In this document: one piece after another, positions 2,794-17,217 of the stretch
Position numbering within the stretch: position 1 is the first letter of the stretch
Layout of the letters: each line of letters starts with the position of its first letter
Source: Dickeya solani IPO 2222
Lineage (GTDB): Bacteria; Pseudomonadota; Gammaproteobacteria; Enterobacterales; Enterobacteriaceae
Length of the DNA stretch: 32,000 nt
Direction: 5' to 3'
NCBI RefSeq assembly: GCF_001644705.1
Contig: NZ_CP015137.1
Location: 3,660,001-3,692,000, forward strand
Notes under the pieces: generated by a model
What the model saw: the letters and a program-made list of their open reading frames with translations, nothing else
Database searches by the model: none
What the model was told of the DNA's origin: nothing
Translations under genes and position numbers: made by a program

Positions 2794-2997
2794 TCCTTTT
2801 TTCCGATGCGATGGCCGACGCCATACAGTGCGTCCATTGTGGCACAGCGCACATCACGGCACGATGGGATAAAAGTGAATTTGAAAAGTCAGGCTCATGG
2901 AATGCGGCGATCGTACCGATATAATTTTGTGATGGTTATCACAAAAAATGGATGTCATTAGTCTATAAAAAAACCACCGAAAGGATAAAGACAAAAC

Positions 2998-3087
2998 CTG
3001 CGCAATTTTTTGCTCAGTTATCAGCATAAATCCCTGTTTGCGCAATGTTTGCAAACGATTCGGGAAGTCTGCGCAATTTTTTGCTCA
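2998..3087 (+). promoter_or_regulatory. Repeated 19-mer / 18-bp imperfect palindrome; candidate activator (enhancer-binding protein) sites upstream of hcp
   Basis: Identical CTGCGCAATTTTTTGCTCA at 2998-3016 and 3069-3087. Each reads TGCGCAA-N4-TTGCTCA, with half-sites symmetric at 6 of 7 positions. A degenerate copy, TGCGCAA-N3-TTGCAAA, lies at 3039-3055. Confidence 0.4.
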
Positions 3088-3146
3088 AATTTGGCTTAGG
3101 GAAGATGACGATGTCATTTTTACCTTTAAAAACAATGAAATAAAAA

Positions 3147-3163
3147 CTGGCATAGTCATTGCT
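3147..3163 (+). promoter_or_regulatory. Candidate sigma-54 (-24/-12) promoter of hcp
   Basis: CTGGCATAGTCATTGCT compared with the consensus YTGGCACGrNNNTTGCW. GG (3149-3150) and GC (3161-3162) are in the canonical register. The element lies about 50 nt upstream of the hcp ATG. Confidence 0.5.
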
Positions 3164-3214
3164 TTATGAACGGGCGAAGTCATACCTAACCGTTCAACAA
3201 CAAGGAGCAAGACT

Positions 3215-3733
3215 ATGCCAACTCCATGCTATATCAGCATCGAAGGTAAAACTCAGGGCAATATCACCGCCGGTGCCTTTACTTCCGACTCCGTCGGCAA
3301 CATCTACGTGCAGGGCCACGAAGATGAGATGCTGGTTCAGGAATTCAACCACATCGTGACCGTGCCGACCGACCCGCAGTCCGGCCAGCCGTCCGGTCAG
3401 CGCGTGCACAAGCCGTTCAAATTCACCGTGGCGCTGAACAAAGCCGTGCCGCTGCTGTATAACGCGCTGGCGTCCGGCGAAATGCTGCCGACCGTAACCC
3501 TGAAGTGGTACCGCACCTCTGTCGAAGGCAAGCAGGAGCATTTCTTCACCACCACCCTGACCGATGCCACCATCGTCGACATCAACAACCAGATGCCGCA
3601 CTGCCAGGACCCGTCCAAGCAGGATTACACCCAGCTTATTGAAGTGTCGCTGGCGTACCGCAAGGTTGACTGGGAGCACACCGTTGCCGGCACCTCCGGT
3701 TCCGACGACTGGCGCGCGCCGGTCGAAGCGTAA
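3215..3733 (+). CDS. hcp: T6SS tube protein Hcp (TssD)
   Basis: 172-aa ORF beginning MPTPCYISIEGKTQGNITAGAF...HKPFKFTVALNKAVPLLYNAL...DWRAPVEA, the classic Hcp1-family sequence. Shine-Dalgarno AAGGAG at 3202-3207. Confidence 0.97.
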   Translation: MPTPCYISIEGKTQGNITAGAFTSDSVGNIYVQGHEDEMLVQEFNHIVTVPTDPQSGQPSGQRVHKPFKFTVALNKAVPLLYNALASGEMLPTVTLKWYRTSVEGKQEHFFTTTLTDATIVDINNQMPHCQDPSKQDYTQLIEVSLAYRKVDWEHTVAGTSGSDDWRAPVEA

Positions 3734-3742
3734 TCGCCTATT

Positions 3743-3768
3743 AACCCGGACTTTGGTCCGGGTTTTTC
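3743..3768 (+). terminator. Rho-independent terminator/attenuator between hcp and vgrG
   Basis: Stem AACCCGGAC (3743-3751) / GTCCGGGTT (3756-3764), loop TTTG, followed by a T-run. Confidence 0.7.
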
Positions 3769-3897
3769 CGTTTTTGTCTGTGCTGAGCGATGGGGTGCCC
3801 ATCGCTGAGTGCAGTCGTATTCATCATGATTTTGCGCTGACGCACGGCATCCGCCGGGTGTGCGGTAGCTATGGAGCCGGGGAAAGGAGGAAGCAAG

Positions 3898-5934
3898 GTG
3901 GCCAACAGTACAGGATTGCAGTTTACCGTGAAAATCGGCGCATTGGCGGAGACCACCTTCGCGGTGGTGGATTTTGAACTCGGAGAGGCGTTGAACCAGC
4001 CGTTCGCGCTGTCGTTGAGCCTTGCCAGCAGCCAGGCGGATATTGATTTTGGCGCGGTGCTGGACCAGCCGTGCGAGCTGACGGTGTGGTACGAAGGCGA
4101 GCTACAGCGCCGGGTCAGCGGCATCGTCAGCCGCTTTGCCCAGGGCGACACCGGTTTTCGCCGCACCCGCTATCAGGCGGAAGTGCGCCCGGCGCTGTGG
4201 CGACTGGGGCTGCGCACCAACGCCCGACTCTTCCAGACCCAGAAACCGGACGCGATTATCGGCACCCTGCTGGAAGAAGCCGGGATTACCGATTACGCCT
4301 TCGCCCTGCGCCATGAACACGCGGTGCGCGAATACTGCGTGCAGTACCGCGAAAGCGACCTGGCGTTCATCAACCGGCTGGCGGCGGAAGAAGGGCTGTT
4401 CTACTTCCACGAATTCGAAGCCGGCAAGCATCGGGTGGTGTTTGCCGACGACGCCGGCGCGCTCAGCAAAGGCCCGGAACTGTTCTTCAATCTCGCCACG
4501 CAAGGCTTGTCGGAAGGCGCTTATGTGCGCCGTTTCCGTTACGCCGAGGCGGTGAGCACCGCCGAGGTGGCGCTGAAGGATTACAGCTTCAAAACCCCGG
4601 CCTACGGGCTGCTGCACAACAAGATGAGCAGCGAGCTGGACCACCAGCGCGAGTCCTACCAGCACTTCGACTACCCCGGCCGCTTCAAGCAGGACCCGAG
4701 CGGCAAGGCCTTTACCGGCTACCGGCTGGACGCGCTGCGTGCCGGGGCGATGACCGGCAGTGGCGAATCCAACGCCGCCGAACTGATGCCGGGCAGCACC
4801 TTTACCCTCACCGAGCATCCGAACCCGGCGTTTAACCTGGCCTGGCAGGTGGTGGCGGTGACCCACAGCGGGCAGCAGCCGCAGGCGCTGGAAGAGGAAA
4901 GCGGCGGCGAGCCGACCACGCTCAGCAACAGTTTCGAGGTGGTGAAAGGCACCACCACCTGGCGGGCGGCGCTGCCGTACAAGCCGATGGTGGACGGCCC
5001 GCAAATTGCGACGGTGGTGGGCCCAGCGGGCGAAGAAATTTACTGCGATCAGTACGGGCGGGTGAAGCTGCAATTTCCGTGGGATCGCTACGGCGCCAGC
5101 GACGACCAGAGTTCTTGCTGGGTGCGGGTCAGTCAGGGTTGGGCCGGCGGTCAGTACGGGTTAATCGCCATTCCACGTATCGGCCATGAGGTGGTGGTGA
5201 GCTTTCTGGAGGGTGACCCGGACCAGCCGCTCATCACCGGTCGGACTTTCCATGCCACCAACCCCACGCCGTATGTACTGCCGGAACACAAAACTCGAAC
5301 CACGTTGCGTACCGATACCCACAAAGGCAGCGGTTTCAACGAACTTCGTTTCGAAGATGAGGCTACCCGGGAGCAGATTTACCTGCACGCACAAAAAGAC
5401 ATGGACGCGGTGATCAACAACATTCATCGCCAGAGCGTCGGGTTGGATCAGCATCTGAGTGTGGCGAACGACCAGTTCCAGCGGGTGGATCGCCATAGCC
5501 ATCGCACCATCGGGCAGGATGATTTTGAACAGATTGGGCAGGACCATCATCAATCGATTGGTCGCCATCTCGTACAGAGCATCACCCAATCATTCAAGCG
5601 CTTTATCGGCGGCGGAGAGATCACCCGTATTGAAGGCAGCCGCCAGACTACGCTGTCTGGTTCGGAAGAGACGCTGATTGGCGCGCATCAGCGCGTGCTG
5701 GTCAATACCGACAGCTACCTCAAAGCGGCGGATATCGTGCTGGAAGCCGGGCAGTCGCTGACTATCAAGGCACCGGGCGGGTTTATCAAAATCGACGGTG
5801 CCGGCGTCACCATTTCCGGCACGGTGGTGAAAATCAACGACGGCGGTTCCGCAGGAGCGGGCACGGCGCCGGTGTCGATCGAGCCGGAGGCCCCCACCAG
5901 ACCGACGCTGCCAGACGCGCCGGACCGGCGTTAA
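3898..5934 (+). CDS. vgrG: T6SS spike protein VgrG (TssI) with no C-terminal effector extension
   Basis: The gp27/gp5-like sequence begins (V/M)[19 protein letters not shown]2345-type beta-helix lies near the C-terminus ([18 protein letters not shown]). I prefer the GTG at 3898 because AAGGAGG at 3885-3891 is correctly spaced. The ORF track starts 27 nt earlier, at the ATG at 3871. Confidence 0.95.
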
Positions 5935-5943
5935 GGAGCCACC

Positions 5944-6756
5944 ATGCCAGGAGCTGCGCGTTTAGGGGACAGCTGTGCCGGTCACGGCTGCTTTCCTGCC
6001 ACCCCGGTGATCGCGGGCAGTGGCGATGTGATTATCAATGGCAAACCGGCGGCGCGTAAAGGCGATGCGGTGTTGCTGCACGCCTGTCCATGCCCGAATA
6101 TGCCGCACGGGGTTCACAACCGGGCGATTTCCGCCGGTTCCGGTACGGTGATCATCAACGGCAAGCTGGCCGCCCGTATCGGCGATGCCATCGGCTGTGG
6201 CGGCTCGGTGGCGGCCGGCAGCGGGGATGTGATTATTGGCGATACGCCTTACCAGTCGCCGGTTAAATCCTGTGCGGAACAGTCGGCGAAAAGCCGCGCT
6301 CCGCTGCTGGCGCTAACGCCGATGCTGCTGCCCGCCATGATGGAATGGGCCGCGACCGCCGAGCTGCCGGTGCTGGATGAGGCACTGACGGTATTACAGC
6401 GTAAAGATCGCTATCTGGCGCGCGCTAAGCTGGCGCAACAGGCGGCGACCATGCCGGGCCTGAAAGACGCCGCCACCCGACTGGCGTTTAACAACGACAG
6501 CATCTTGCGCGCGGAAGCGGCGCAGTATGTTTATCCGGTGGATGAGGTGGCGCGTAAGGTCAGAACGGTATTGCCAAAAGCACCGGTTGGGTTGGTCCAT
6601 TTAACTGCTAAGGAAATTCCAGAACTGGCTGGTGCCAAATTTACGGATCCGGATTCCGGTTTTGGGGCCGCATTGTTCAAATCTGATATTAATGGTGAGA
6701 CGATGCTTACCTTCAGAGGAACAAATAATGCAGTAACAGGGCCAAGGACTGGATGA
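5944..6756 (+). CDS. PAAR-domain protein; the N-terminal part of a PAAR-lipase effector, ending prematurely because of a frameshift
   Basis: Two PAAR motifs (INGKPAARKGD, INGKLAARIGD) lie in a Gly/Cys/His-rich N-terminus. The C-terminal part carries the start of a lipase fold (SGFGAALFKSDINGETMLTFRGTNN) and then stops after 7 more codons. Confidence 0.85.
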   Translation: MPGAARLGDSCAGHGCFPATPVIAGSGDVIINGKPAARKGDAVLLHACPCPNMPHGVHNRAISAGSGTVIINGKLAARIGDAIGCGGSVAAGSGDVIIGDTPYQSPVKSCAEQSAKSRAPLLALTPMLLPAMMEWAATAELPVLDEALTVLQRKDRYLARAKLAQQAATMPGLKDAATRLAFNNDSILRAEAAQYVYPVDEVARKVRTVLPKAPVGLVHLTAKEIPELAGAKFTDPDSGFGAALFKSDINGETMLTFRGTNNAVTGPRTG

Positions 6757-7313
6757 CGAATCTTTCACAAGGAATGGGAAAAGATACAGCACAGTATAAG
6801 CAGGCAATGTACCTTGCAAAGCAAGTTAAAGATATTCTTCCTGCTGATGCGGTTATTGTTGGACATTCTTTGGGCGGTGGGCTTGGTTCTGCTGGTGTAG
6901 GTGCTAGTGGTCTGAAAGGATATACCTTCAATGCTGCTGGACTTCATGAGAATACGGTTAGTCGATTTGGTGGATTGGCGATGGAAAAAATCAATCCATT
7001 AATAAAGACTCAGGCGGTAGATGGAGAAATCCTGACCATGGTGCAGACCTATGGCAAAGCGGCATTACCTGGGTTGTTATCTGGGGCAGGAGCATTGGTT
7101 GGTGGTGGTGTCGGTGCTGCTATTGGGGGGATTACTGGGGTGGCAACATTATTGAGTGGTGCGTTGCCCAAAGCAGCCGGGAATATGATGCCACTTCCTG
7201 CGTCAGGGGGATCGCCGTTGGCACGCCATGGTATGGACCAAGTTATTGCAGGTATCGAAAGTCAAAAAAAGGATGATATTGGCAGTATTACTAAGACACT
7301 CAAGGGGGCATGA
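6753..7313 (+). CDS. Lipase (alpha/beta-hydrolase, class-3/DUF2974-like) catalytic portion; probably the out-of-frame continuation of the PAAR gene
   Basis: Nucleophile elbow VGHSLGGG (Ser codon 6867-6869), candidate Asp (7020-7022) and candidate His (RHGM, 7227-7229). This frame is open from 6729 and reads AKDWMTNLSQG across the upstream stop. ATGA overlap with the upstream ORF. Confidence 0.75.
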   Translation: MTNLSQGMGKDTAQYKQAMYLAKQVKDILPADAVIVGHSLGGGLGSAGVGASGLKGYTFNAAGLHENTVSRFGGLAMEKINPLIKTQAVDGEILTMVQTYGKAALPGLLSGAGALVGGGVGAAIGGITGVATLLSGALPKAAGNMMPLPASGGSPLARHGMDQVIAGIESQKKDDIGSITKTLKGA

Positions 7314-8080
7314 TGCAATGGCTCAAATGGCTGGGAATACTGATTATTGGAATGTTAACCGCCTGTCAGGCGGGGGGAAGCAGCATGCAGGCCAGTGAAT
7401 TTTTCAAACCACCGATGGTTAAGGTGTTATCCAGCATTCAGAAAGGGGATGAAGCCGCGGCCAGGCAACAACTGGCACAGGGGCTAAACCTGAATGTGTT
7501 AGGCGAAGAAGGTATTACCCCGCTGTTGTGGTTGGTGATGCAGCAGGATCAGGCTGGAGCCAGGTTGGCGTTAAAGCTGGGTGCTGATCCTAATTTCCGA
7601 ACGGGTACGGGTTCGTCAGCCGTTAATATGGTGGCTGGTGCGAAATCGCCTGAATGGTTGAAAATGATGCTGGATGCCGGTGGCGATCCTAATTCCCGTG
7701 ATCACAATAAAGTGCCTGCGTTATTTAATGCGATAGCTGAAGAACGCTGGGCGGATATTAAGCTGTTGGTAGAGCGTGGCGCAGATGTGAATTTGACTGA
7801 TGCTCAGCATACAACTAGCGCACATTATGCAGCTTATATTAATCAATACGAGATTGCGTACTGGCTAATAGAGCACGGCTCCAATATTAATACGTATTCT
7901 GCAACGGGTGCGAGTTTGGCCTGGACAGTAGAAGATAGTTTGTCGCTGATGGATCATCGCTCGCCACATTATCCCTGGGCGCTGAAAGTGAAGCAGTTGC
8001 TGCAACAGCGTGGGGTAAAATTTCCCCCCTTATCTCCGGCAGAAGTCAGGGAGCGACGAGCCAAAGGTGAATTACTTTAA
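7310..8080 (+). CDS. Ankyrin-repeat lipoprotein; probable periplasmic immunity protein for the adjacent lipase
   Basis: Signal peptide with lipobox MLTAC (MMQWLKWLGILIIGMLTAC). Four ANK-like repeats (GITPLLWLV..LKLGADPN; ..MLDAGGDPN; ..LLVERGADVN; ..LIEHGSNIN). ATGA overlap with the lipase stop. Low G+C like the lipase module. Confidence 0.7.
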   Translation: MMQWLKWLGILIIGMLTACQAGGSSMQASEFFKPPMVKVLSSIQKGDEAAARQQLAQGLNLNVLGEEGITPLLWLVMQQDQAGARLALKLGADPNFRTGTGSSAVNMVAGAKSPEWLKMMLDAGGDPNSRDHNKVPALFNAIAEERWADIKLLVERGADVNLTDAQHTTSAHYAAYINQYEIAYWLIEHGSNINTYSATGASLAWTVEDSLSLMDHRSPHYPWALKVKQLLQQRGVKFPPLSPAEVRERRAKGELL

Positions 8081-8239
8081 AAAAGACATCGCGGTAATTC
8101 TGTCCGTATTTCAATAGCAATATATTATTTTTTTGTTCGTCATCGTGGTGGGGTTTATTTCCTCTGCCGAGGTTTGTCGCTGTTCTCATTCCGGTTTTTC
8201 CTTATTTACATACCGATTAATTATCCCAGTGAAAAAATC

Positions 8240-9208
8240 ATGACGATAACGGGCTATACCCTGTTTGAACTCAGTCAGCGTTGCTCGCTGCCGCTGTATG
8301 CCATTGTCGATCCGATGCGTTATCCGGCATTGCCGGATTTCTGGCGTGCGTTTCAACCACGGTCAGCGCAGATATGGCAACGCTTGCGCTTTGAGGGTGC
8401 CGGCGACGACTGGCAGCGCTGGGCGCCGATGGTGGTGCAGGTGGAAGAGGGCGGACCGGGGGAAACGTTGCTGCACTGGCTGGCGGATACACAGTCCGCG
8501 CGCCATCAGGGCGTGATGTTGATGCATAGCGAGCAGTCACTGACGCGAGTGGCTGATTTCTGGCAGCAACGTCTGCGCTGCCGTTATCCGGACGGCACGC
8601 TGGCGCAGTTGCGCAGTCACGTACCGGATGTGTTGCGGCTGTGGTGGCAAACGCTGAACGTCGAGGAACAGACGGCGTTTATCGGGCTGCTGGACGGTTT
8701 GTATCTGCCGCTGGCGGAAGACGACTTCAGCGTTCCTTGCCGCTATCAAGCGCTGGTGGGCCAACATGAGGAGCGGCCAGTGCCGCAAGCCACCCACGAC
8801 GACTATCTGATTACCCTAAACCGCGACCAGTTTTATCGGTTATCCAACGACAACCGTCTGCACCGGCTGGCGAATGAGTTGTTTCTGTATGCCGGCACAT
8901 TGCATTGGATGCAGTTGGATATCGAGGTGGTGAAAAGCCACTTTCTCAGCGGCATTACGCTGGCCCGCATCCGCTATCCGCTTGCCTTGGAAACGGAGTG
9001 TGAAGCCTGGTCGGCCCACCGTTGGGTAATCGGCAGCGAGTTTTATCATCATCCTGTTTTTATTCATTTGACCGAGCGTTATTCGCTGGGCGACAGCATA
9101 CGGATTTTTAAATCCGAATCCGCCCAGGTGGAAGACGTTCGCCTTCATTATCACCGGCCCGGCTGGATGCGGGGCGAATTACCGGATACGACGGAGGTTA
9201 TGCCGTGA
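8240..9208 (+). CDS. DUF4123-type T6SS adaptor/chaperone, paralogue 1
   Basis: N-terminal LYAIVDPMRYPALPDFW and WQQRLRCRYPDGTLAQLRSHVPDVL match the DUF4123 pattern (YAxxD ... hLR..l.v..pdG...lRfyDPrvl). I prefer the ATG at 8240 (MTITGYTLFEL) over the TTG at 8174. Confidence 0.7.
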   Translation: MTITGYTLFELSQRCSLPLYAIVDPMRYPALPDFWRAFQPRSAQIWQRLRFEGAGDDWQRWAPMVVQVEEGGPGETLLHWLADTQSARHQGVMLMHSEQSLTRVADFWQQRLRCRYPDGTLAQLRSHVPDVLRLWWQTLNVEEQTAFIGLLDGLYLPLAEDDFSVPCRYQALVGQHEERPVPQATHDDYLITLNRDQFYRLSNDNRLHRLANELFLYAGTLHWMQLDIEVVKSHFLSGITLARIRYPLALETECEAWSAHRWVIGSEFYHHPVFIHLTERYSLGDSIRIFKSESAQVEDVRLHYHRPGWMRGELPDTTEVMP

Positions 9209-10122
9209 CGCTGTCTCAATCTTTTCTGAGTCTGCAACCGGAAACGGAAGCGGCCTGGCAGGCGCGACTGGCCGCAGGCGGGTGCTTTGTGGTCGCCGAA
9301 GCGGCACTGAACGATGCGGTCCCCTGGCTGGCGGAGCGCTGGGGCGGCAGTCTGGAACAAACCCGTCTGTACTGGGGCGAAACCGGACAGGTTCATGCGT
9401 CCGTCTCGCCTTATTGCATTCCCGTCCATCCGGCCAACTGGCCACAGGTGCGTGAACATCTGTTGACGCAGCCAGGCTGGGGACTGGGAGTACAACTCGA
9501 CGGGTTTATGCAGGCTTACTCGCCGCTCGACCAACTGCTGGAGCTGGTAAAACACTTGCGACAGTGGAGTCTGATCGCCACCCAGGAAGGCGACAGCGCT
9601 ATTCTGCGCATCAGCGATTGGGAAGTGATCTCCCCGCTACTGGCGGCGAGTTCGCCGCAAGAAGCCACCGCGCTCTACGGCCCGATCGCCACCTTTTGCG
9701 ATATGGCGCCCGACGGCACCGTACAGAGCCTGACGCTGACCGAACGAACCGCACACAACCCGCCCGATACCTTGCCGCGCTCGCTCAGCGAGGCGCAGTG
9801 GCTGGCGCTACTGGCGCCGGCGACGCGTCAGGCGCTGGACAGCTACATGGCGCATCTCCGCACGCATCACCAGCGCTGGCAGAACAGTGATGACGACAGC
9901 TTGCTGAATTTCACCTGTCAGCAGACCGAACAGGCCCGTATTCAGGGATTTAATAACGACCGCGATATCGTGCGCTATCTGGCGCTGGCCACCGAGCTGG
10001 AACCAGCCTTTATCCACCAGCCGTGGGCGCAGACGATTCTGGCACAGCCGGAGTATATCGGCGCGCAAAACCGTATGGACCGCCTGTATAAGACGGCGAT
10101 TGACCAACTGGACGACGCATAA
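9205..10122 (+). CDS. DUF4123-like T6SS adaptor/chaperone, paralogue 2
   Basis: SPYCIPVHPANWPQV...VKHLRQWSLIATQEGDSAILRISDWEVISPLL follows the same DUF4123 pattern. The GTG start overlaps the upstream stop (GTGA). A related C-terminal helical region is present. Confidence 0.6.
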   Translation: MTLSQSFLSLQPETEAAWQARLAAGGCFVVAEAALNDAVPWLAERWGGSLEQTRLYWGETGQVHASVSPYCIPVHPANWPQVREHLLTQPGWGLGVQLDGFMQAYSPLDQLLELVKHLRQWSLIATQEGDSAILRISDWEVISPLLAASSPQEATALYGPIATFCDMAPDGTVQSLTLTERTAHNPPDTLPRSLSEAQWLALLAPATRQALDSYMAHLRTHHQRWQNSDDDSLLNFTCQQTEQARIQGFNNDRDIVRYLALATELEPAFIHQPWAQTILAQPEYIGAQNRMDRLYKTAIDQLDDA

Positions 10123-10141: not shown

Positions 10142-13100
10142 ATGAGTCAGGATAAAAAGGCGACGCTGCTGTCGAGTGAAGACGCAGCCAATCAGAATTT
10201 TGCCACGGATAACCAAATTTCAGGCGGTTGCGCCAAATGCGGCTGCGAAGTGTTGATTCACTACCACTATGACTCCGGGAAACCGGTGCCTAACGCGCCG
10301 TTCATCCTGATTGATAGCAATAAGACGGAAATCCACGGCAAAACCGACGCCAAAGGGTTATGCAAAATTTACGACATGGGATGCGGCACGTTTGAGCTGA
10401 TGCTGGATGAAGGCTCCGACGATTTCAAACCCCGTGAAACCGTGGAAAACAACCCGGTATTACAGTCAAATCCGGCTTATGCGACGCTGGCGGGAGAGTA
10501 TTTCACGCTGTTTTTGTTGCTGCGCAAGCAGGGATTGGTGACCTACGACGCGGATGACAGCAGCGATCGGCATGTGGATGTCGACGGCGCGGGGATTTTT
10601 ACCTCCATTCCCAAGGAGTACCGCAAATCCTATGACCGCTTCTGGGAACTGGATAAACGTATTAACCACGGCAGTCGTCAGCTAAAGAAGGCGATTAACA
10701 AAATCCATCACAGCCTGGCGGCGGAAGTGGCGGACAAAGGCGGGGATGACAACGCGGCGCTGATGCTGTTTTGTGAAATCGCGCTGGGCTTTATTCCGGT
10801 GGTCGGGCAGGCGATGGATGTCTATTCGATCGGCGAGTGGAGCTGGCAGTCTTACCAGGAACCGGCCAAGCTGGAAGACCCGTTGCATATCGCCGAAGGC
10901 GCACTCTGTGCGATAGGGGTAATTCCAGGATTGGGCGACGCGCTGAAGGTCAGCGGGCGGGCGATTATCCGGGCGCTCAAGGTCGGGACGCCGAAAGAGT
11001 TGCAGTTCGCCATCAGGACTATCCGCAGCCTGTCGGACGGCAATCTGGTGAAAGGGCTGACCAAACTGCGCGCTGAGCTGCAAAATTATGGCGCGCAGGC
11101 CAAAGCCCTATTGCTGAAGATTCATGCGGTGCTCAAACAGGTGCTGGCCGAGTCGAAGCTGAAAAACAACTGGATTGTGTCGCTGATGAAAGACAGCTTC
11201 AGCGCCATGATCACCGCGCTGGAAAAGCTGATCGCCAAATATGACAGCGCGCTGGCCTATATTGAGTCCAAATTCAATGAGTTTATCGGCAAGGTCATCA
11301 CCCGCGTGAGCGGCAGCGCCAGGCCGAAGGGGAGCATCGCTAAGGCAGCCGAAGCGCCAAAAGCGCCGGCGCATGCTGAAAGCCAGGCGGCCAAACCGGC
11401 TACCCCAAAATCCGACAATTCAATAACCAAGGCCGATGACGGAAAGCCGAAAAATGCGGTGAGTGAAAAGAAACGGCGCACATCGTCGAAAGAAACCGAG
11501 GACATTAGCGCCGGGAGTAATAAGGGCGAACAGCCGGATCACGCCCCGCAGCAGAAAAAAGCCGGGGAAGAGGACAACGCGTGCAAAGCTGGCAGCGATA
11601 AGTGCCAGAGTGAAGGCGAGCCGGTGGATATGGCGACCGGTTACGTGGTGGACTGGCGCACCGACGTTGAGCTGACGGGGTTGCTGCCGTTATCCATGAA
11701 GCGCTATTACCGCTCAGGCGGGGAGCGGAAACCGGGGCTGTTAGGGGCGCTGTGGCGCACCAACTGGGATATGAGCCTGGAGCTGAAAAACGGCATCGCT
11801 ACCCTGACTGACGGCGAGTTCAACCAGACGGTATTCGTGCTGCCTGACGAGGGAGCGTTCAGCCGCGCGCCGTCCAGCCCGCAGTGGCGGTTGACGCGTC
11901 AACAGGGGCAGCTCGTGCTGCAACATGTGGACGGCTTGCGTTATCGCTTTGAACATGCGCTGGGGCTGCAACTTTGCCTCAGCGCGATGGAAGACCGGGC
12001 GGGCAACCGGATCGCCCTGCTGTGGGATCGCGCCGATCTGTGCTGGATAGCGCTGCCGGATGGCCGTCTGGTACATGTGGAGACACAGCGGCGGCGGATT
12101 GTGAAACTGACGCTGTGCGATGAGCATCGTCAGACGCTAAAAACGTTGGTCAGCTACCGCTACGATGCGCAAGGTCATCTGCTCAGCGTGCGCGCCGGCG
12201 AAGGGCGTAATTTCGATTACCGCTACTCGCCGGAAGGCTGGCTGTTGCGCTGGTCCGATCTGGCTCACACCTGGGTCGAACATGACTACGACGCGCAGGG
12301 GCGCGCGTTGCGCGACAGAACGGCGGAAGGTTTCTGGCCCGGTTCGTTCAGTTACGACGCCGATAGCCTCACCAACCACTATCACAGCGGGTTCGGCGGG
12401 GTGACCACCTATGTGCGCGATGGGCGCAATAATATTCTGTGCCGCCGCGAGCCGGACGGCGGCGAGGTCCAATTCGAGTGGGACAACAACCAGCTGGCGG
12501 CGCAGATTGACCCGCTGGGCCAGCGCACCGTGTATCAGCGTAACGACTGGGGGCAGGTGACGGTGGTGACGCTGCCGGACGGGAGCGTACACCGTTACGA
12601 TTACGACGATGACGGTCAGCTGCTGGCCTATACCGACCCGTTGGGCAACGCCTGGAACTATTCCCGCAACGCTCAGGGGTTGGTGGAAACGGCCAGCGAT
12701 CCGGAGGGGCGGACTTGGCATCATGCGTACACGGCGCAGGGGCTGTTGTCGGCGGTAACCGGGCCGGATGGCCGCGAGCAGCGTTATCATTACAACCGGC
12801 GCGGGTTGCTGGAACGGCTGGAACCGGGCGAGGCGCCGACGGTGACCTTTTTCTACGATGCGCAGGACCGGCTGACGGCGCGACATATCGCGCATGAGCA
12901 AGGCGTGCAGGTGCGGCGCTGGGATTATGAAGGCGGACGCGACACGCCGTCGAAAGTGGTGTACGAAGACGGCAGCGAAACCCGTTTTGGCTACGATACG
13001 GAAGGCAACCTGACCTCGGTGACGGATGCGCTGGGGCAGCGGTACCTGTTCCGCTATGGCGCGTTTGATAACCTGCTGGAAGCGACCGACCCGCTGGGTG

Positions 13101-15124
13101 CGACCGTCCGCTATCATTACAATGCGGAAGCGGAATTCGCCGGGGTGACCAACAGCCAGGGGCAGGCGTGGCAATACCAGTTTGACGCCTGTGGCCGGCT
13201 GAGCGAAGAGCGGCATTACGACGGCCGGGTGTACCGTTACGATTACGATGTGGCAGGCCGGCTGACAGGGCGCAGCGCACCGGACGGCAGCCAGCTTGCG
13301 TACGGGTATGACGTGGGCGGCCGCCTGAGCGAGATTCAGGCCTGCCGTGCGGACGGGGCCAGTGAAGGTGTCACCACGTTCGGCTATGACCTGTCGGGCC
13401 GGCTGCTGAAGGCGGCGAGCCCGGACGCGGTGGTGGAGTACGCGTATAACTGTGCCGGACAGGTGGTGTCGGAGCGGGTAAACGGCGAGGAGGTGCGCAC
13501 CGGTTACGACGACGGCGGGCAGCGGTCGGTGGTGGAAGGGCTGCTGTCGTCGCTGAGTCTGGGCTGGCAGGGCGGGCGGCTGACCACGCTGAGCATCGGT
13601 TCGCATCAACCGCTGACGTTCAGCCACACGGCGTCGGGGTATGAACAGCGGCGCAGCAATGGCGAAGGTTTTGCGCTGCGCCACGAGTGGAGCGCCACCG
13701 GGCTGCTGGCGGGCCAGGCGCTGGACGGGGTAAACGGGGTGCTGGAGCGTCGCTACCAGTACGACGTGCTGGACCGTCTGACGGGCATCACGGACAGTCA
13801 CTGGGGTGAGCAGGCGTTCCGGCTGAACGGCGCCGGGCAGGTGACGGCGGAGCGTCGCGAGCAGGGTCGGCAGCGGCAGGCGCGGCTGTTTGGCTACGAC
13901 AGCGAACAGAACCTGTGCGAGGTGTCGGCGATAGCGCCGGACGGCGCAGGGCGGCTGTCGGCAAAAAACGCGGCGGTGCAGTCGTCGGCGGGTTACGATG
14001 AGGCGGGCCGGGTGACGCAGCGCGGCGGCCGTCAGTATCAGTACGACGCCTGCGGCCGTCTGGTGAGCCGACGGGAAAGCCGTCCCGGCTTCCGACCGCA
14101 GGAAACGCGGTTTGAGTGGGACGCGCAGGACCGGCTGGTGCGGGTGAGTTTGCCGGACGGGGCGCGGTGGCGGTATTGTTACGACGCATTCGGACGGCGG
14201 GTAAGCAAGGTGCGCGAGGGCCAGGTGCCATCGGCGCAGGCGGTAGCGCGGGTGGCGTACCGGTGGGATGGCGACCAGCTGTCGGGCCAGACGCAGTACC
14301 GTGTTGACGGCAGCGTGGCGCGGGCGGTGCAGTGGGTGTACGAGCCGGGGAGTTTCCGGCCGCTGGCGCAGGTGGAGGAGCAGGCGGGCCAGACCCGGCT
14401 GCACTATATCGTGACGGACCTGACGGGCACGGCGCGGGAGCTGTGCAGCGAAACGGGAGAAGTACACTGGCGCGGCGAACAGGGACTGTGGGGACCGCAC
14501 CGGGAGGAGCGGATACCCATTCCGCTACGGCGTTATCTGGGTGATGCGACGAACGAAGAGGTGTACTGCGAGCTGCGTTATCAGGGCCAGGTATACGACG
14601 CGGAAACGGGACTGTACTACAACCGGCACCGCTACTACGACCCGGAGTTGGGGCAGTATATCTCGGCGGACCCGATAGGGCTGGCAGGAGGGCTGAGGCC
14701 GCAGGGGTATGTGCATAATCCGCTGGAATGGGTGGATCCACTGGGATTGGTGGGGTGTCCTGGCGAGAAAAACAAAAAAACCACATATGAAGGTGAAAGC
14801 CGTCGTGATGCATTTAGGCAAGCTAAACGGGATGCTGGAATACCTAATAGCCAGCAGCCTCGTAGTGTAACTAGACCAGACCTTCTTGATGGTGAAGGTA
14901 AGAAAATATTAGATGGTAGTGGACAACCAATTAAAACTAGACAATATGAATTTATTAATAATAAAGGCGAAAAAATATTTATACAGGAACATAGTTTGGG
15001 TCATACAAAAGCTACGCCTTTACATGGGGCAGATCCACATTTCAATGTTAGACCTTCTGATAACTTGAATACAGGTAGTGTTCCTGGAACACATGGGCAT
15101 TACAATTTTCTTAGAGGATACTAA
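10142..15124 (+). CDS. rhs: Rhs-family T6SS toxin (YD-repeat shell) with a non-PAAR N-terminal region and a polymorphic C-terminal toxin domain
   Basis: 1660-aa ORF. The core opens with [20 protein letters not shown] (about 11615). There are many YD repeats (YxYDxxGRL). The core closes with [12 protein letters not shown] (about 14714-14749), followed by a low-GC tail of about 125 aa. Confidence 0.95.
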
Positions 15125-15126
15125 TT

Positions 15127-15516
15127 ATGTGGTTTGAACATGCTATAGGGAAAGAAAAAATAAAATTCATGTTCGATAATGAACTAAGTATTCAACGCAT
15201 TGAAGTTAATAGTTTTTCACTGGAACGGTTTTCAGACTTGAAATTTCACTTTTTTTGTAATGAAATCCCCAGAAAATTTCCTGTGAAATGGAGAGGTGAG
15301 GGGTTTAATGCTCTTAGTCTGGTAATTGTTTTTGGTGATGTGACTCAATTAAATATTGTTGGTTCGAGGGTCGGTTTTTTTTGTTCTCCGCTAATAAATT
15401 CTTCAAGTGATTATTCTGAGATAACGATAAAAAATAGTGATCTTGATTTTTATTGCAGGTCGAGGTTTTTAACCATAGAAAGTATTACGCCATATATTGA
15501 TGAGCGATGGGATTAA
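15127..15516 (+). CDS. Cognate Rhs immunity protein (RhsI-type, family not assigned)
   Basis: 129-aa ORF starting 2 nt after the rhs stop. It has the same low G+C as the toxin tail. It is paralogous to the ORF at 16831-17217, which sits in the identical position after the orphan toxin. Confidence 0.8.
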   Translation: MWFEHAIGKEKIKFMFDNELSIQRIEVNSFSLERFSDLKFHFFCNEIPRKFPVKWRGEGFNALSLVIVFGDVTQLNIVGSRVGFFCSPLINSSSDYSEITIKNSDLDFYCRSRFLTIESITPYIDERWD

Positions 15517-15842: not shown

Positions 15843-16828
15843 CCGGGGTACTGGAGCGTCGCTACCAGTACGACGTGCTGGACCGTCTGACGGGCATCAC
15901 GAGCAGGCTTTCCGTCTGAACGGCGCAGGCGGTAGCGCGGGTGGCGTACCGGTGGGATGGCGACCAGCTGTCGGGCCAGACGCAGTACCGTGTTGACGGC
16001 AGCGTGGCACGCGCGGTGCAGTGGGTGTACGAGCCGGGGAGTTTCCGGCCGCTGGCGCAGGTGGAGGAGCAGGCGGGCTAGACCCGGCTGCACTATATCG
16101 TGACGGATCTGACGGGCACGGCGCGGGAGCTGTGCAGCGAAACGGGAGAAGTGCACTGGCGCGGCGAACAGGGACTGTGGGGAGCGCACCGGGAAGAGCG
16201 GATACCCATTCCGCTGCGGCGTTATCTGGGTGATGCGGCGAACGAGGAGGTGTACTGCGAGCTGCGTTATCAGGGCCAGGTATACGACGCGGAAACAGGG
16301 CTGTACTACAACCGGCACCGCTACTACGACCCGGAGTTGGGGCAGTATATCTCGGCAGACCCGATAGGTTTACAGGGGGGTATCCGGCCGCAGGGATATG
16401 TGCATAACCCGATGGAGTGGGTGGATCCGCTGGGGTTGGTTGGATGTCCCGGTGAGAAAAACAAAAAAACTACATATGAAGGTGAAAGCCGTCGTGATGC
16501 ATTTAGGCAAGCTAAACGGGATGCTGGAATACCAATGAGTCAACAACCCCGTAGTGTAACGAGGCCAGACCTTCTTGATGGTAACGGTAATGTAATGCTG
16601 GATAAGAATGGGTTGCCAATTAAAACTAGACAATATGAATTCCTTAATAATAAAGGCGAAAAAATATTTATACAGGAACATAGTTTGGGTCATACAAAAG
16701 CGACGCCTTTGCATGGCGCAGATCCACATTTTAATGTAAGGCCATCGGATCCCATAACTGGCGTTGCGTTAGACACGAAGACTCCACCGGGAGTACACGG
16801 ACATTACAACTTCCTTAGAGGATACTAA
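15843..16828 (+). pseudogene. Orphan rhs 3' fragment with a variant C-terminal toxin domain (decayed; no credible own start)
   Basis: 15845-15900 matches rhs 13736-13795, and 15921 onward matches rhs 14232 onward at a constant offset of 1689. Relative to the main gene it lacks 16 nt and about 0.4 kb. It has TAG (16079-16081) where the main gene has CAG. The tracked ORF 16100-16828 begins at an internal GTG with no Shine-Dalgarno sequence. Confidence 0.85.
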
Positions 16829-16830
16829 TT

Positions 16831-17217
16831 ATGTGGTTTGAACATGCTTTAGGGAAAGAGAAAATTCAATTTATGTTTGGTAATGAGTTTTCTCTGTTAG
16901 ATTTAGAGTTAATTTCATTTTCTTTTAATGTTTCTAGTTTGTATTTGAGCTTTTCCTGTCGAAATATTCCTGAAAAATATCCTAAAAAATGGGATGGTGA
17001 TGGTTTTAATTCATTGCTGTTAAGTATTACTCTTTCTGATGTTGTTTATTTTGAAAGTAAAGGTGCTAATGTTATGTTTACTTCAACACCAATAATTAAA
17101 ACAGATAAAGAATTTTCGATTCTTGAAATAAATAACCCCAAGCTTTATTTTTACTGCAAATCAAAATTTTTAACAGTTAATGATATCAAACCTTATATTG
17201 ATGACCGTTGGGATTGA
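16831..17217 (+). CDS. Orphan Rhs immunity protein (paralogue of 15127-15516)
   Basis: 128-aa intact ORF starting 2 nt after the orphan toxin stop. The conserved ends (MWFEHA.GKEKI.FMF ... FYC.S.FLT...I.PYID.RWD) are shared with the first immunity protein. About half of the positions are identical in my hand alignment. Confidence 0.8.
   Translation: MWFEHALGKEKIQFMFGNEFSLLDLELISFSFNVSSLYLSFSCRNIPEKYPKKWDGDGFNSLLLSITLSDVVYFESKGANVMFTSTPIIKTDKEFSILEINNPKLYFYCKSKFLTVNDIKPYIDDRWD

Follow-up and report, generated by a model that had tools for sequence, protein, structure and literature searches.

Directly behind the spike gene vgrG in a type VI secretion system (T6SS) island of Dickeya solani IPO 2222, two overlapping open reading frames (ORFs) stand where related bacteria carry a single gene, which raises the question of whether this gene is broken, misread, or still expressed as a whole by some less usual route. 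We addressed this question for a stretch of 32,000 nucleotides (contig NZ_CP015137.1, positions 3,660,001 to 3,692,000 of the forward strand), hereafter called the window, to which all coordinates refer. An earlier note on this DNA had described a PAAR domain in the ORF at 5944-6756 and a following ORF open from 6729, had read the pair as a specialised PAAR-lipase effector split by a 1-nt frameshift, and had offered a very recent lesion, a sequencing or assembly error, and an ON/OFF switch as explanations. The ORFs are as described there, and our results argue strongly for the first explanation: the locus is very probably a recent, clonally fixed frameshift pseudogene of a PAAR-Tle6 effector, with its immunity gene kept. 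The argument turns on the following features:

5944..6756, + strand: ORF1, 270 amino acids, 5′ fragment of the broken paar-tle6 gene (ORF list, PAAR profiles, and structure model)
6739..6741, + strand: the lesion, a run of GGG in place of the GGGG of intact alleles, hence shorter by 1 nt through deletion (DNA alignments)
6753..7313, + strand: ORF2, 186 amino acids, 3′ fragment, corresponding to residues 271-456 of the intact protein (frame open from 6729)
7310..8080, + strand: tli, an intact ankyrin-repeat lipoprotein immunity gene with the lipobox MLTAC (Ank Pfam families)

Adding one G to the GGG at 6739-6741, as the earlier note had proposed, joins ORF1 and ORF2 into a protein of 456 amino acids. 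The top database match of this repaired protein, to which it aligns without gaps, is the 456-amino-acid PAAR domain-containing protein of an intact D. solani strain (P0001), with 452 of 456 residues identical (99%). More than 80 full-length homologues of ~451-464 amino acids, encoded in Dickeya, Pectobacterium, Brenneria, Samsonia, Aeromonas, Lonsdalea, and Shewanella, confirm the joined frame, which is therefore far beyond chance. The orthologue is a single ORF of 456-464 amino acids in 16 other species, none of which keeps two ORFs with an ATGA junction such as that of the window. Profile matches likewise cross the break. Mbeg1-like/DUF2974 (PF11187) is recovered at residues 237-316 of the repaired protein (22.9 bits against a gathering cut-off of 21.1), a stretch spanning the junction, and is matched neither by ORF1 alone nor by ORF2 alone; a phmmer alignment connects repaired residues 155-449 with 7ubz_B, the “T6SS lipase effector” Tle of Enterobacter cloacae (E=1.5e-28). 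The deposited gene calls for the fragments, “PAAR motif protein” and “phospholipase” or “hypothetical protein,” would thus be better read as one pseudogene.

By its sequence, the window belongs to the clonal D. solani lineage, its positions 2944-9756 being identical to CP051457 and CP016928 (the latter from strain RNS 08.23.3.1.A) in the locus alignment. At the lesion, the intact alleles of D. solani (loci L001/L002 and L031) and of D. dadantii CP077422 (L030) read ACA GGG GCC AAG GAC TGG ATG, whereas the window reads ACA GGG CCA AGG ACT GGA TGA; its GGG state recurs in two clonal D. solani genome assemblies and in the Logan read-level assembly of run SRR3111247. Because both the intact D. solani lineages and D. 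dadantii carry GGGG, four G residues represent the ancestral state, from which one G is missing in the window. No other indel separates paar-lipase and tli (5944-8080) from the intact D. solani locus. The exact 270-amino-acid product is encoded on at least 24 contigs (26 blocks), 15 of them longer than 1 Mb, and the exact 186-amino-acid product on 16 contigs; the carriers are named D. solani and include D s0432-1 and RNS 08.23.3.1.A. In this species-level comparison, which drew on loci from the encoding contigs, every assembly with the window allele inherits the deletion, and all carriers are OFF.

Between the window allele and that of intact D. solani there are 13 nucleotide differences, 12 within the first 523 nt and one in the lipase part, and the two proteins differ at positions 59, 154, 175, and 279. 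At the last three, the window has the residue of 21 close outgroups, and since it keeps the shared residue, the changes arose in the intact lineage; position 59 is N or S among the outgroups. No stops or indels beyond the lesion were found in paar-lipase and tli relative to the intact D. solani locus, and because no further decay has accumulated, the lesion is recent, one of the options that the earlier note had raised from the intact catalytic codons. A single clonal assembly (L007, GCA_002921195.1) carries T338R in ORF2 (window 6955, C to G) at a residue that is invariant in a 38-sequence family alignment, an anecdotal hint that is consistent with relaxed constraint after the frameshift. The papers that we found on the T6SS, pseudogenes, and frameshifts of D. 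solani, a literature covered incompletely, do not mention the lesion.

Elsewhere in the family, the orthologue of Brenneria rubrifaciens ICMP 1915 (L025, 4001-5366) runs over three frames, which implies one frameshift around residues 136-139 and a second around 343-344. Since a different record of B. rubrifaciens encodes the protein whole, at 456 amino acids, the ICMP 1915 copy may represent either a pseudogene of independent origin or an error of long-read assembly.

ORF1 comprises the PAAR domain (amino acids 1-99, 5944-6240), a linker, and the first part of the lipase, namely, helices alpha1-2 and three strands (amino acids ~150-266). Its C-terminal end reads ...TFRGTNNAVTGPRTG in one citation and ...MLTFRGTNNAVTGPRTG in a second, each followed by the stop, and the last four residues, PRTG, are frameshift-encoded. 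The PAAR assignment relies on PF05488 (E=2.7e-19, above the cut-off), on NF033420 (E=5.6e-32; 109.7 bits, below the NCBI equivalog cut-off of 124), and on the PAAR proteins 4jiv_D (E=1e-16) and 4jiw_D (E=4e-14) in the PDB. ORF2 encodes what remains of a probable lid helix, together with four strands, the nucleophile elbow GHSLGG, and all three triad residues; a precomputed match assigns the 186-amino-acid product to PF26363 (“Phospholipase-like”).

On sequence and model grounds, the lipase is a Tle6 phospholipase effector of the E. cloacae Tle type. The structural comparison used an AlphaFold model of the intact orthologue, in which the predicted local distance difference test (pLDDT) score is ~85-97 for residues 150-372 and 405-456; it is below 50 for residues 1-146 (PAAR and linker), for which we make no structural claim. 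The top Foldseek match of the model is 9cys_A (E=3.2e-17, target-normalised template modelling score 0.73), followed by fungal class-3 lipases and feruloyl esterases. The class-3-type lipase of the earlier note therefore stands at the level of the fold; Pfam Lipase_3 has no match at E<=0.01, and the precise family is Tle6. A functional Tle6 member would carry its entire lipase domain on one unbroken polypeptide; the window copy, whose domain is split, is a pseudogenised member. The E. cloacae enzyme, for whose family its authors chose the name Tle6, uses the triad Ser341/Glu393/His448; its lid helix alpha6 is sequestered by the ankyrin immunity protein Tli, and a Tli-dependent methylglyoxal (MODIC) cross-link between Arg180 and Lys461 is required for activity (PMC11470151). 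Jensen et al. (bioRxiv 10.1101/2023.03.28.534661) noted PAAR-fused homologues of this lipase domain in Dickeya, with ankyrin immunity genes linked to them in every case. The equivalent Dickeya residues, placed by the 7ubz_B alignment (chain offset +159) and with conservation counted over 121 homologues, are:

6421..6423, + strand: Arg160, equivalent to Tle Arg180, MODIC cross-link partner, in ORF1 (R in 121/121)
6867..6869, + strand: catalytic Ser309 of GHSLGG, equivalent to Tle Ser341 (S in 121/121)
7026..7028, + strand: Glu362, equivalent to Tle Glu393, likely catalytic acid (E in 111/121, D in 8/121)
7227..7229, + strand: catalytic His429, equivalent to Tle His448 (H in 116/121)
7266..7268, + strand: Lys442, equivalent to Tle Lys461, the other MODIC cross-link partner, in ORF2 (K in 116/121)

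All three triad codons are intact in ORF2. The serine and histidine are those picked out in the earlier note, whereas its candidate acid, Asp360 (7020-7022), is D in only 89 of the 121 homologues; on 7ubz numbering and family conservation, it was dropped for Glu362, with which Tle Glu393 aligns and which is E or D in 119 of 121. The Asp360 codon, like that of Glu362, is undamaged. Lipase residues ~373-404 (window ~7059-7154) form a Gly/Ala-rich hydrophobic stretch, GLLSGAGALVGGGVGAAIGGITGVATLLSGAL, that resembles a glycine zipper. This stretch, which is modelled with low confidence, is kept in the family consensus, whereas the 7ubz alignment shows E. cloacae Tle to lack most of it; it may be a membrane-inserting element.

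The deletion shifts the frame at codon 267, so that, as had been proposed, the break lies inside the fold and upstream of the catalytic serine. In the model, strands 217-220, 240-247, and 253-257 precede it, and strands 303-308 (leading into the nucleophile elbow), 326-329, 354-359, and 414-418 follow, splitting the seven-strand sheet 3+4. The break falls at the start of helix 262-277, which spans it and which, by its position after the FRGT strand, is probably the lid helix. Arg160, which lies in alpha1, thereby stays on the ORF1 side together with three strands, the linker, and the PAAR domain, and Lys442 on the ORF2 side with the triad and four strands. Residues 267-270 (AKDW) are in neither product, given that ORF1 continues into PRTG and ORF2 starts at Met271 at the earliest. 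Two of these missing residues, Asp269 (121/121) and Trp270 (120/121), are nearly invariant among the homologues. With Asp269-Trp270 absent and the sheet divided, an inactive phospholipase, and with it the loss of this toxin from the lineage, is by far the likeliest outcome, as judged from sequence and model.

Homopolymer miscounts are common, and assemblies L005, L006, and L008 have private indels elsewhere in the locus, which would suit a sequencing or assembly error in which the true genome has GGGG and a single 456-amino-acid gene. However, those very assemblies still encode the exact 270-amino-acid product, the same GGG is read in the two aligned clonal assemblies and in the Logan assembly of SRR3111247, and the identical truncated product recurs on all of the contigs counted above, which come from independent assemblies; the probability of such an error is negligible. 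A phase-variable ON/OFF switch, driven by slipped-strand mispairing in the G-run, would account for a lesion located in a homopolymer and for the presence of both the three-G and the four-G states within D. solani. Yet the tract is only 3-4 nt long, whereas known contingency tracts are much longer. Moreover, the D. solani strains with four G differ from the window at ~1% of flanking positions and hence represent another lineage rather than revertants, and the exact repaired protein of the window allele was not found among ~15 billion protein sequences. The earlier note had also expected GGGG in the orthologues; this holds in intact D. solani and in D. dadantii, but across 16 other species the codons at this spot vary (GGA AAA, GGT GCA, GGC GTT, and others), so that there is no conserved homopolymer. 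We therefore regard a switch as very unlikely.

The full-length protein might instead be made from the broken gene, by programmed -1 ribosomal frameshifting or by transcriptional slippage, given that the frames overlap at 6729-6756 and a -1 shift there would restore it. However, an X XXY YYZ heptamer is lacking from this overlap when it is read in the ORF1 frame, no long A/T run is available for slippage of RNA polymerase, and no orthologue shares the frameshift, so there is no conserved recoding signal; recoding is extremely unlikely. The more elaborate possibility is a split toxin, in which ORF2 would be translated by ATGA-coupled reinitiation, the fragments would co-fold on cytosolic Tli, and the Arg160-Lys442 advanced glycation end product (AGE; MODIC) cross-link would tether the two chains into a PAAR-borne lipase. 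The ATG at 6753 is the first start codon of ORF2, it overlaps the ORF1 stop as ATGA, and a Shine-Dalgarno (SD)-like AAGGA lies upstream at 6744-6748; its anti-SD duplex, at -5.4 kcal/mol, is comparable with those of rhs and imm50 here but is reached by 18% of all ATGs too. The break at the start of the probable lid helix would also suit a split toxin, since this helix is displaced in the Tle-Tli crystal structure (PMC11470151), as would the near-invariant cross-link residues, one on each fragment, and the finding from E. cloacae that alpha1 and alpha13 stay joined by the cross-link when the core has been removed by proteolysis (PMC11470151). A further point in its favour is a strong internal start in tli that might yield a cytosolic form: the ATG at 7385-7387 (Met26, just past the lipobox Cys) follows GGGGGGAAG, for which the anti-SD duplex reaches -9.4 kcal/mol, and could give rise to the cytosolic Tli that E. 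cloacae needs for Tle activation. Nevertheless, neither fragment has residues 267-270, with the near-invariant Asp269 and Trp270, the central sheet is cut, and no other taxon keeps such a split. The SD-like site and the ORF2 ATG are ordinary coding sequence common to the intact alleles and are thus fortuitous, and T338R already affects an invariant residue in one strain. A functional split toxin is accordingly rated as very improbable.

The frameshift pseudogene remains the preferred explanation, and its likely consequences depend on the genes around it. In the window, the order is hcp, vgrG, the broken paar-tle6, tli, two DUF4123 genes, Rhs, and Imm50; further along, an orphan module from the C-terminal part of an rhs gene is followed by a second Imm50, and then come the T6SS core genes tssC, E, F, G, fha, tssJ, K, and L. 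The neighbours closest to the lesion are:

3215..3733, + strand: hcp, T6SS tube protein, first gene of the hcp-vgrG-paar/tle6-tli-rhs island (PF05638 T6SS_HCP, E=1.3e-32)
3871..5934, + strand: vgrG, spike gene, ending 10 nt upstream of ORF1 (Phage_GPD, Phage_base_V, Gp5_trimer_C)
8174/8240-9208 and 9205-10122, + strand: two tandem DUF4123 adaptor/chaperone genes (PF13503, E=1.4e-23 and 4.9e-21)
10142-15124, + strand: PAAR-less Rhs toxin of 1660 amino acids with an HNH/EHHH nuclease C-terminus (Pfam; no PAAR profile match)
15127-15516, + strand: Imm50 immunity gene of the Rhs (Pfam)

The G+C content falls from ~65% to ~45% from ~6500 on, across the lipase part and the next gene. Within vgrG, positions 4250-5000 form a 750-bp divergent patch that holds 78 of the 170 mismatches to the intact D. 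solani locus, as recombination between copies of vgrG might produce. For the first DUF4123 gene, the start is ambiguous (TTG at 8174 in the mechanical ORF list, 8240 according to gene callers), and both of these tandem adaptor genes stand ahead of the PAAR-less Rhs. The orphan rhs module (16100-17217), consisting of the end of the RHS core and an HNH/EHHH toxin, shares 89% identity with the C-terminal end of the main Rhs; the second Imm50 gene, which follows it, is only 50% identical to the first.

The ATG of tli overlaps the stop of ORF2, and residues 30-241 of its product match E. cloacae Tli (7ubz_A, E=4.1e-17); the exact 255-amino-acid Tli was not found among the ~15 billion protein sequences. 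D. dadantii CP077422 (L030, 2871-4371) has two tandem 255-amino-acid genes after its intact paar-lipase, one at the tli position and one behind it, where D. solani has one; the first has no recorded Pfam match, and the second has faint ankyrin matches.

Consistent with the earlier suggestion that ORF1 carries the only PAAR domain of the locus, no second one was found in the 32-kb window by Pfam on the main ORFs, by a six-frame family hidden Markov model (HMM), or in the Rhs N-terminus, although the six-frame HMM is family-specific and a very divergent PAAR-like domain could escape it. The N-terminal 500 amino acids of the Rhs have no relative that we found in the PDB. It is plausible that the 270-amino-acid PAAR stub still caps VgrG and that the downstream PAAR-less Rhs depends on it.

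Collectively, these observations can be accommodated in the following scenario. The original gene after vgrG would have encoded a 456-amino-acid specialised T6SS effector, with its N-terminal PAAR domain seated on the VgrG tip and with a C-terminal Tle6-family phospholipase that, like E. cloacae Tle, would act through Ser309/Glu362/His429. The ankyrin lipoprotein Tli would neutralise this lipase and probably activate it as well. Loss of one G from the ancestral GGGG then shifted the frame at codon 267, which would have inactivated the phospholipase and left the lineage without this toxin. In this lineage, tli would be kept as protection against relatives with the intact toxin, and the PAAR-bearing stub may still cap VgrG, keeping the spike usable for the DUF4123-adapted, PAAR-less Rhs. 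Some points weigh against this interpretation. The ORF2 start, with its ATGA coupling and AAGGA, appears usable, and a C-terminal fragment may be made; both cross-link residues are retained, and complete loss of function is what we infer from the sequence; and other PAAR sources probably exist elsewhere in the genome, because other Dickeya Rhs families are associated with DUF1795/Eag. DUF1795/Eag chaperones normally serve PAAR-bearing Rhs proteins.

If the phospholipase is indeed inactive, the clonal D. solani lineage, which comprises most sequenced isolates, has lost one antibacterial or membrane-targeting T6SS toxin while keeping tli and the PAAR tip. Effector turnover is well known to end in such a “disarmed but immune” state. 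Three versus four G residues at the lesion offer a simple lineage marker. The strain also provides a natural PAAR-only truncation for asking whether a PAAR stub suffices for VgrG loading and Rhs delivery, and it is equally suited to asking whether Tle6 activation chemistry tolerates a broken backbone. The effector type is a known one and current understanding is unchallenged; the interest of the finding is local and concerns the biology and annotation of D. solani.

Among known systems, E. cloacae Tle/Tli (PDB 7ubz, 9cys; PMC11470151) resembles the Dickeya locus in having a homologous lipase domain, as judged by sequence and by Foldseek, in the positions of the GHSLGG Ser/Glu/His triad, in the conserved MODIC Arg and Lys, in the adjacent ankyrin lipoprotein immunity gene, and in being encoded directly after vgrG. 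However, E. cloacae Tle has its own N-terminal VgrG-binding domain, whereas the Dickeya lipase is PAAR-fused and has the extra Gly/Ala-rich hydrophobic insert at residues ~373-404, and the window copy differs further in that its gene is broken by the frameshift. The intact PAAR-Tle6 orthologues (P0001-P0084) represent the same gene, with 99% to 53% full-length identity, and the intact D. solani and D. dadantii loci share the order vgrG, paar-lipase, and a gene at the tli position; these orthologues are single ORFs of ~451-464 amino acids, whereas the window copy, minus one G, encodes 270 + 186 amino acids. Slp of Serratia marcescens (Cianfanelli et al. 2016, PMC4924876), which PMC11470151 names as homologous to E. 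cloacae Tle, is a VgrG-dependent T6SS lipase effector that, unlike the Dickeya protein, has no PAAR fusion according to the cited papers. More distantly, Rhizomucor miehei lipase (4tgl) and Aspergillus niger FaeA share the alpha/beta-hydrolase fold (Foldseek E=1e-5 to 1e-3), and the helix after the FRGT strand would correspond by its position in the model to the fungal lid helix; nevertheless, identity at the sequence level amounts to only 13-18%, and the fungal enzymes have a disulfide where Tle6 has the AGE cross-link (PMC11470151).

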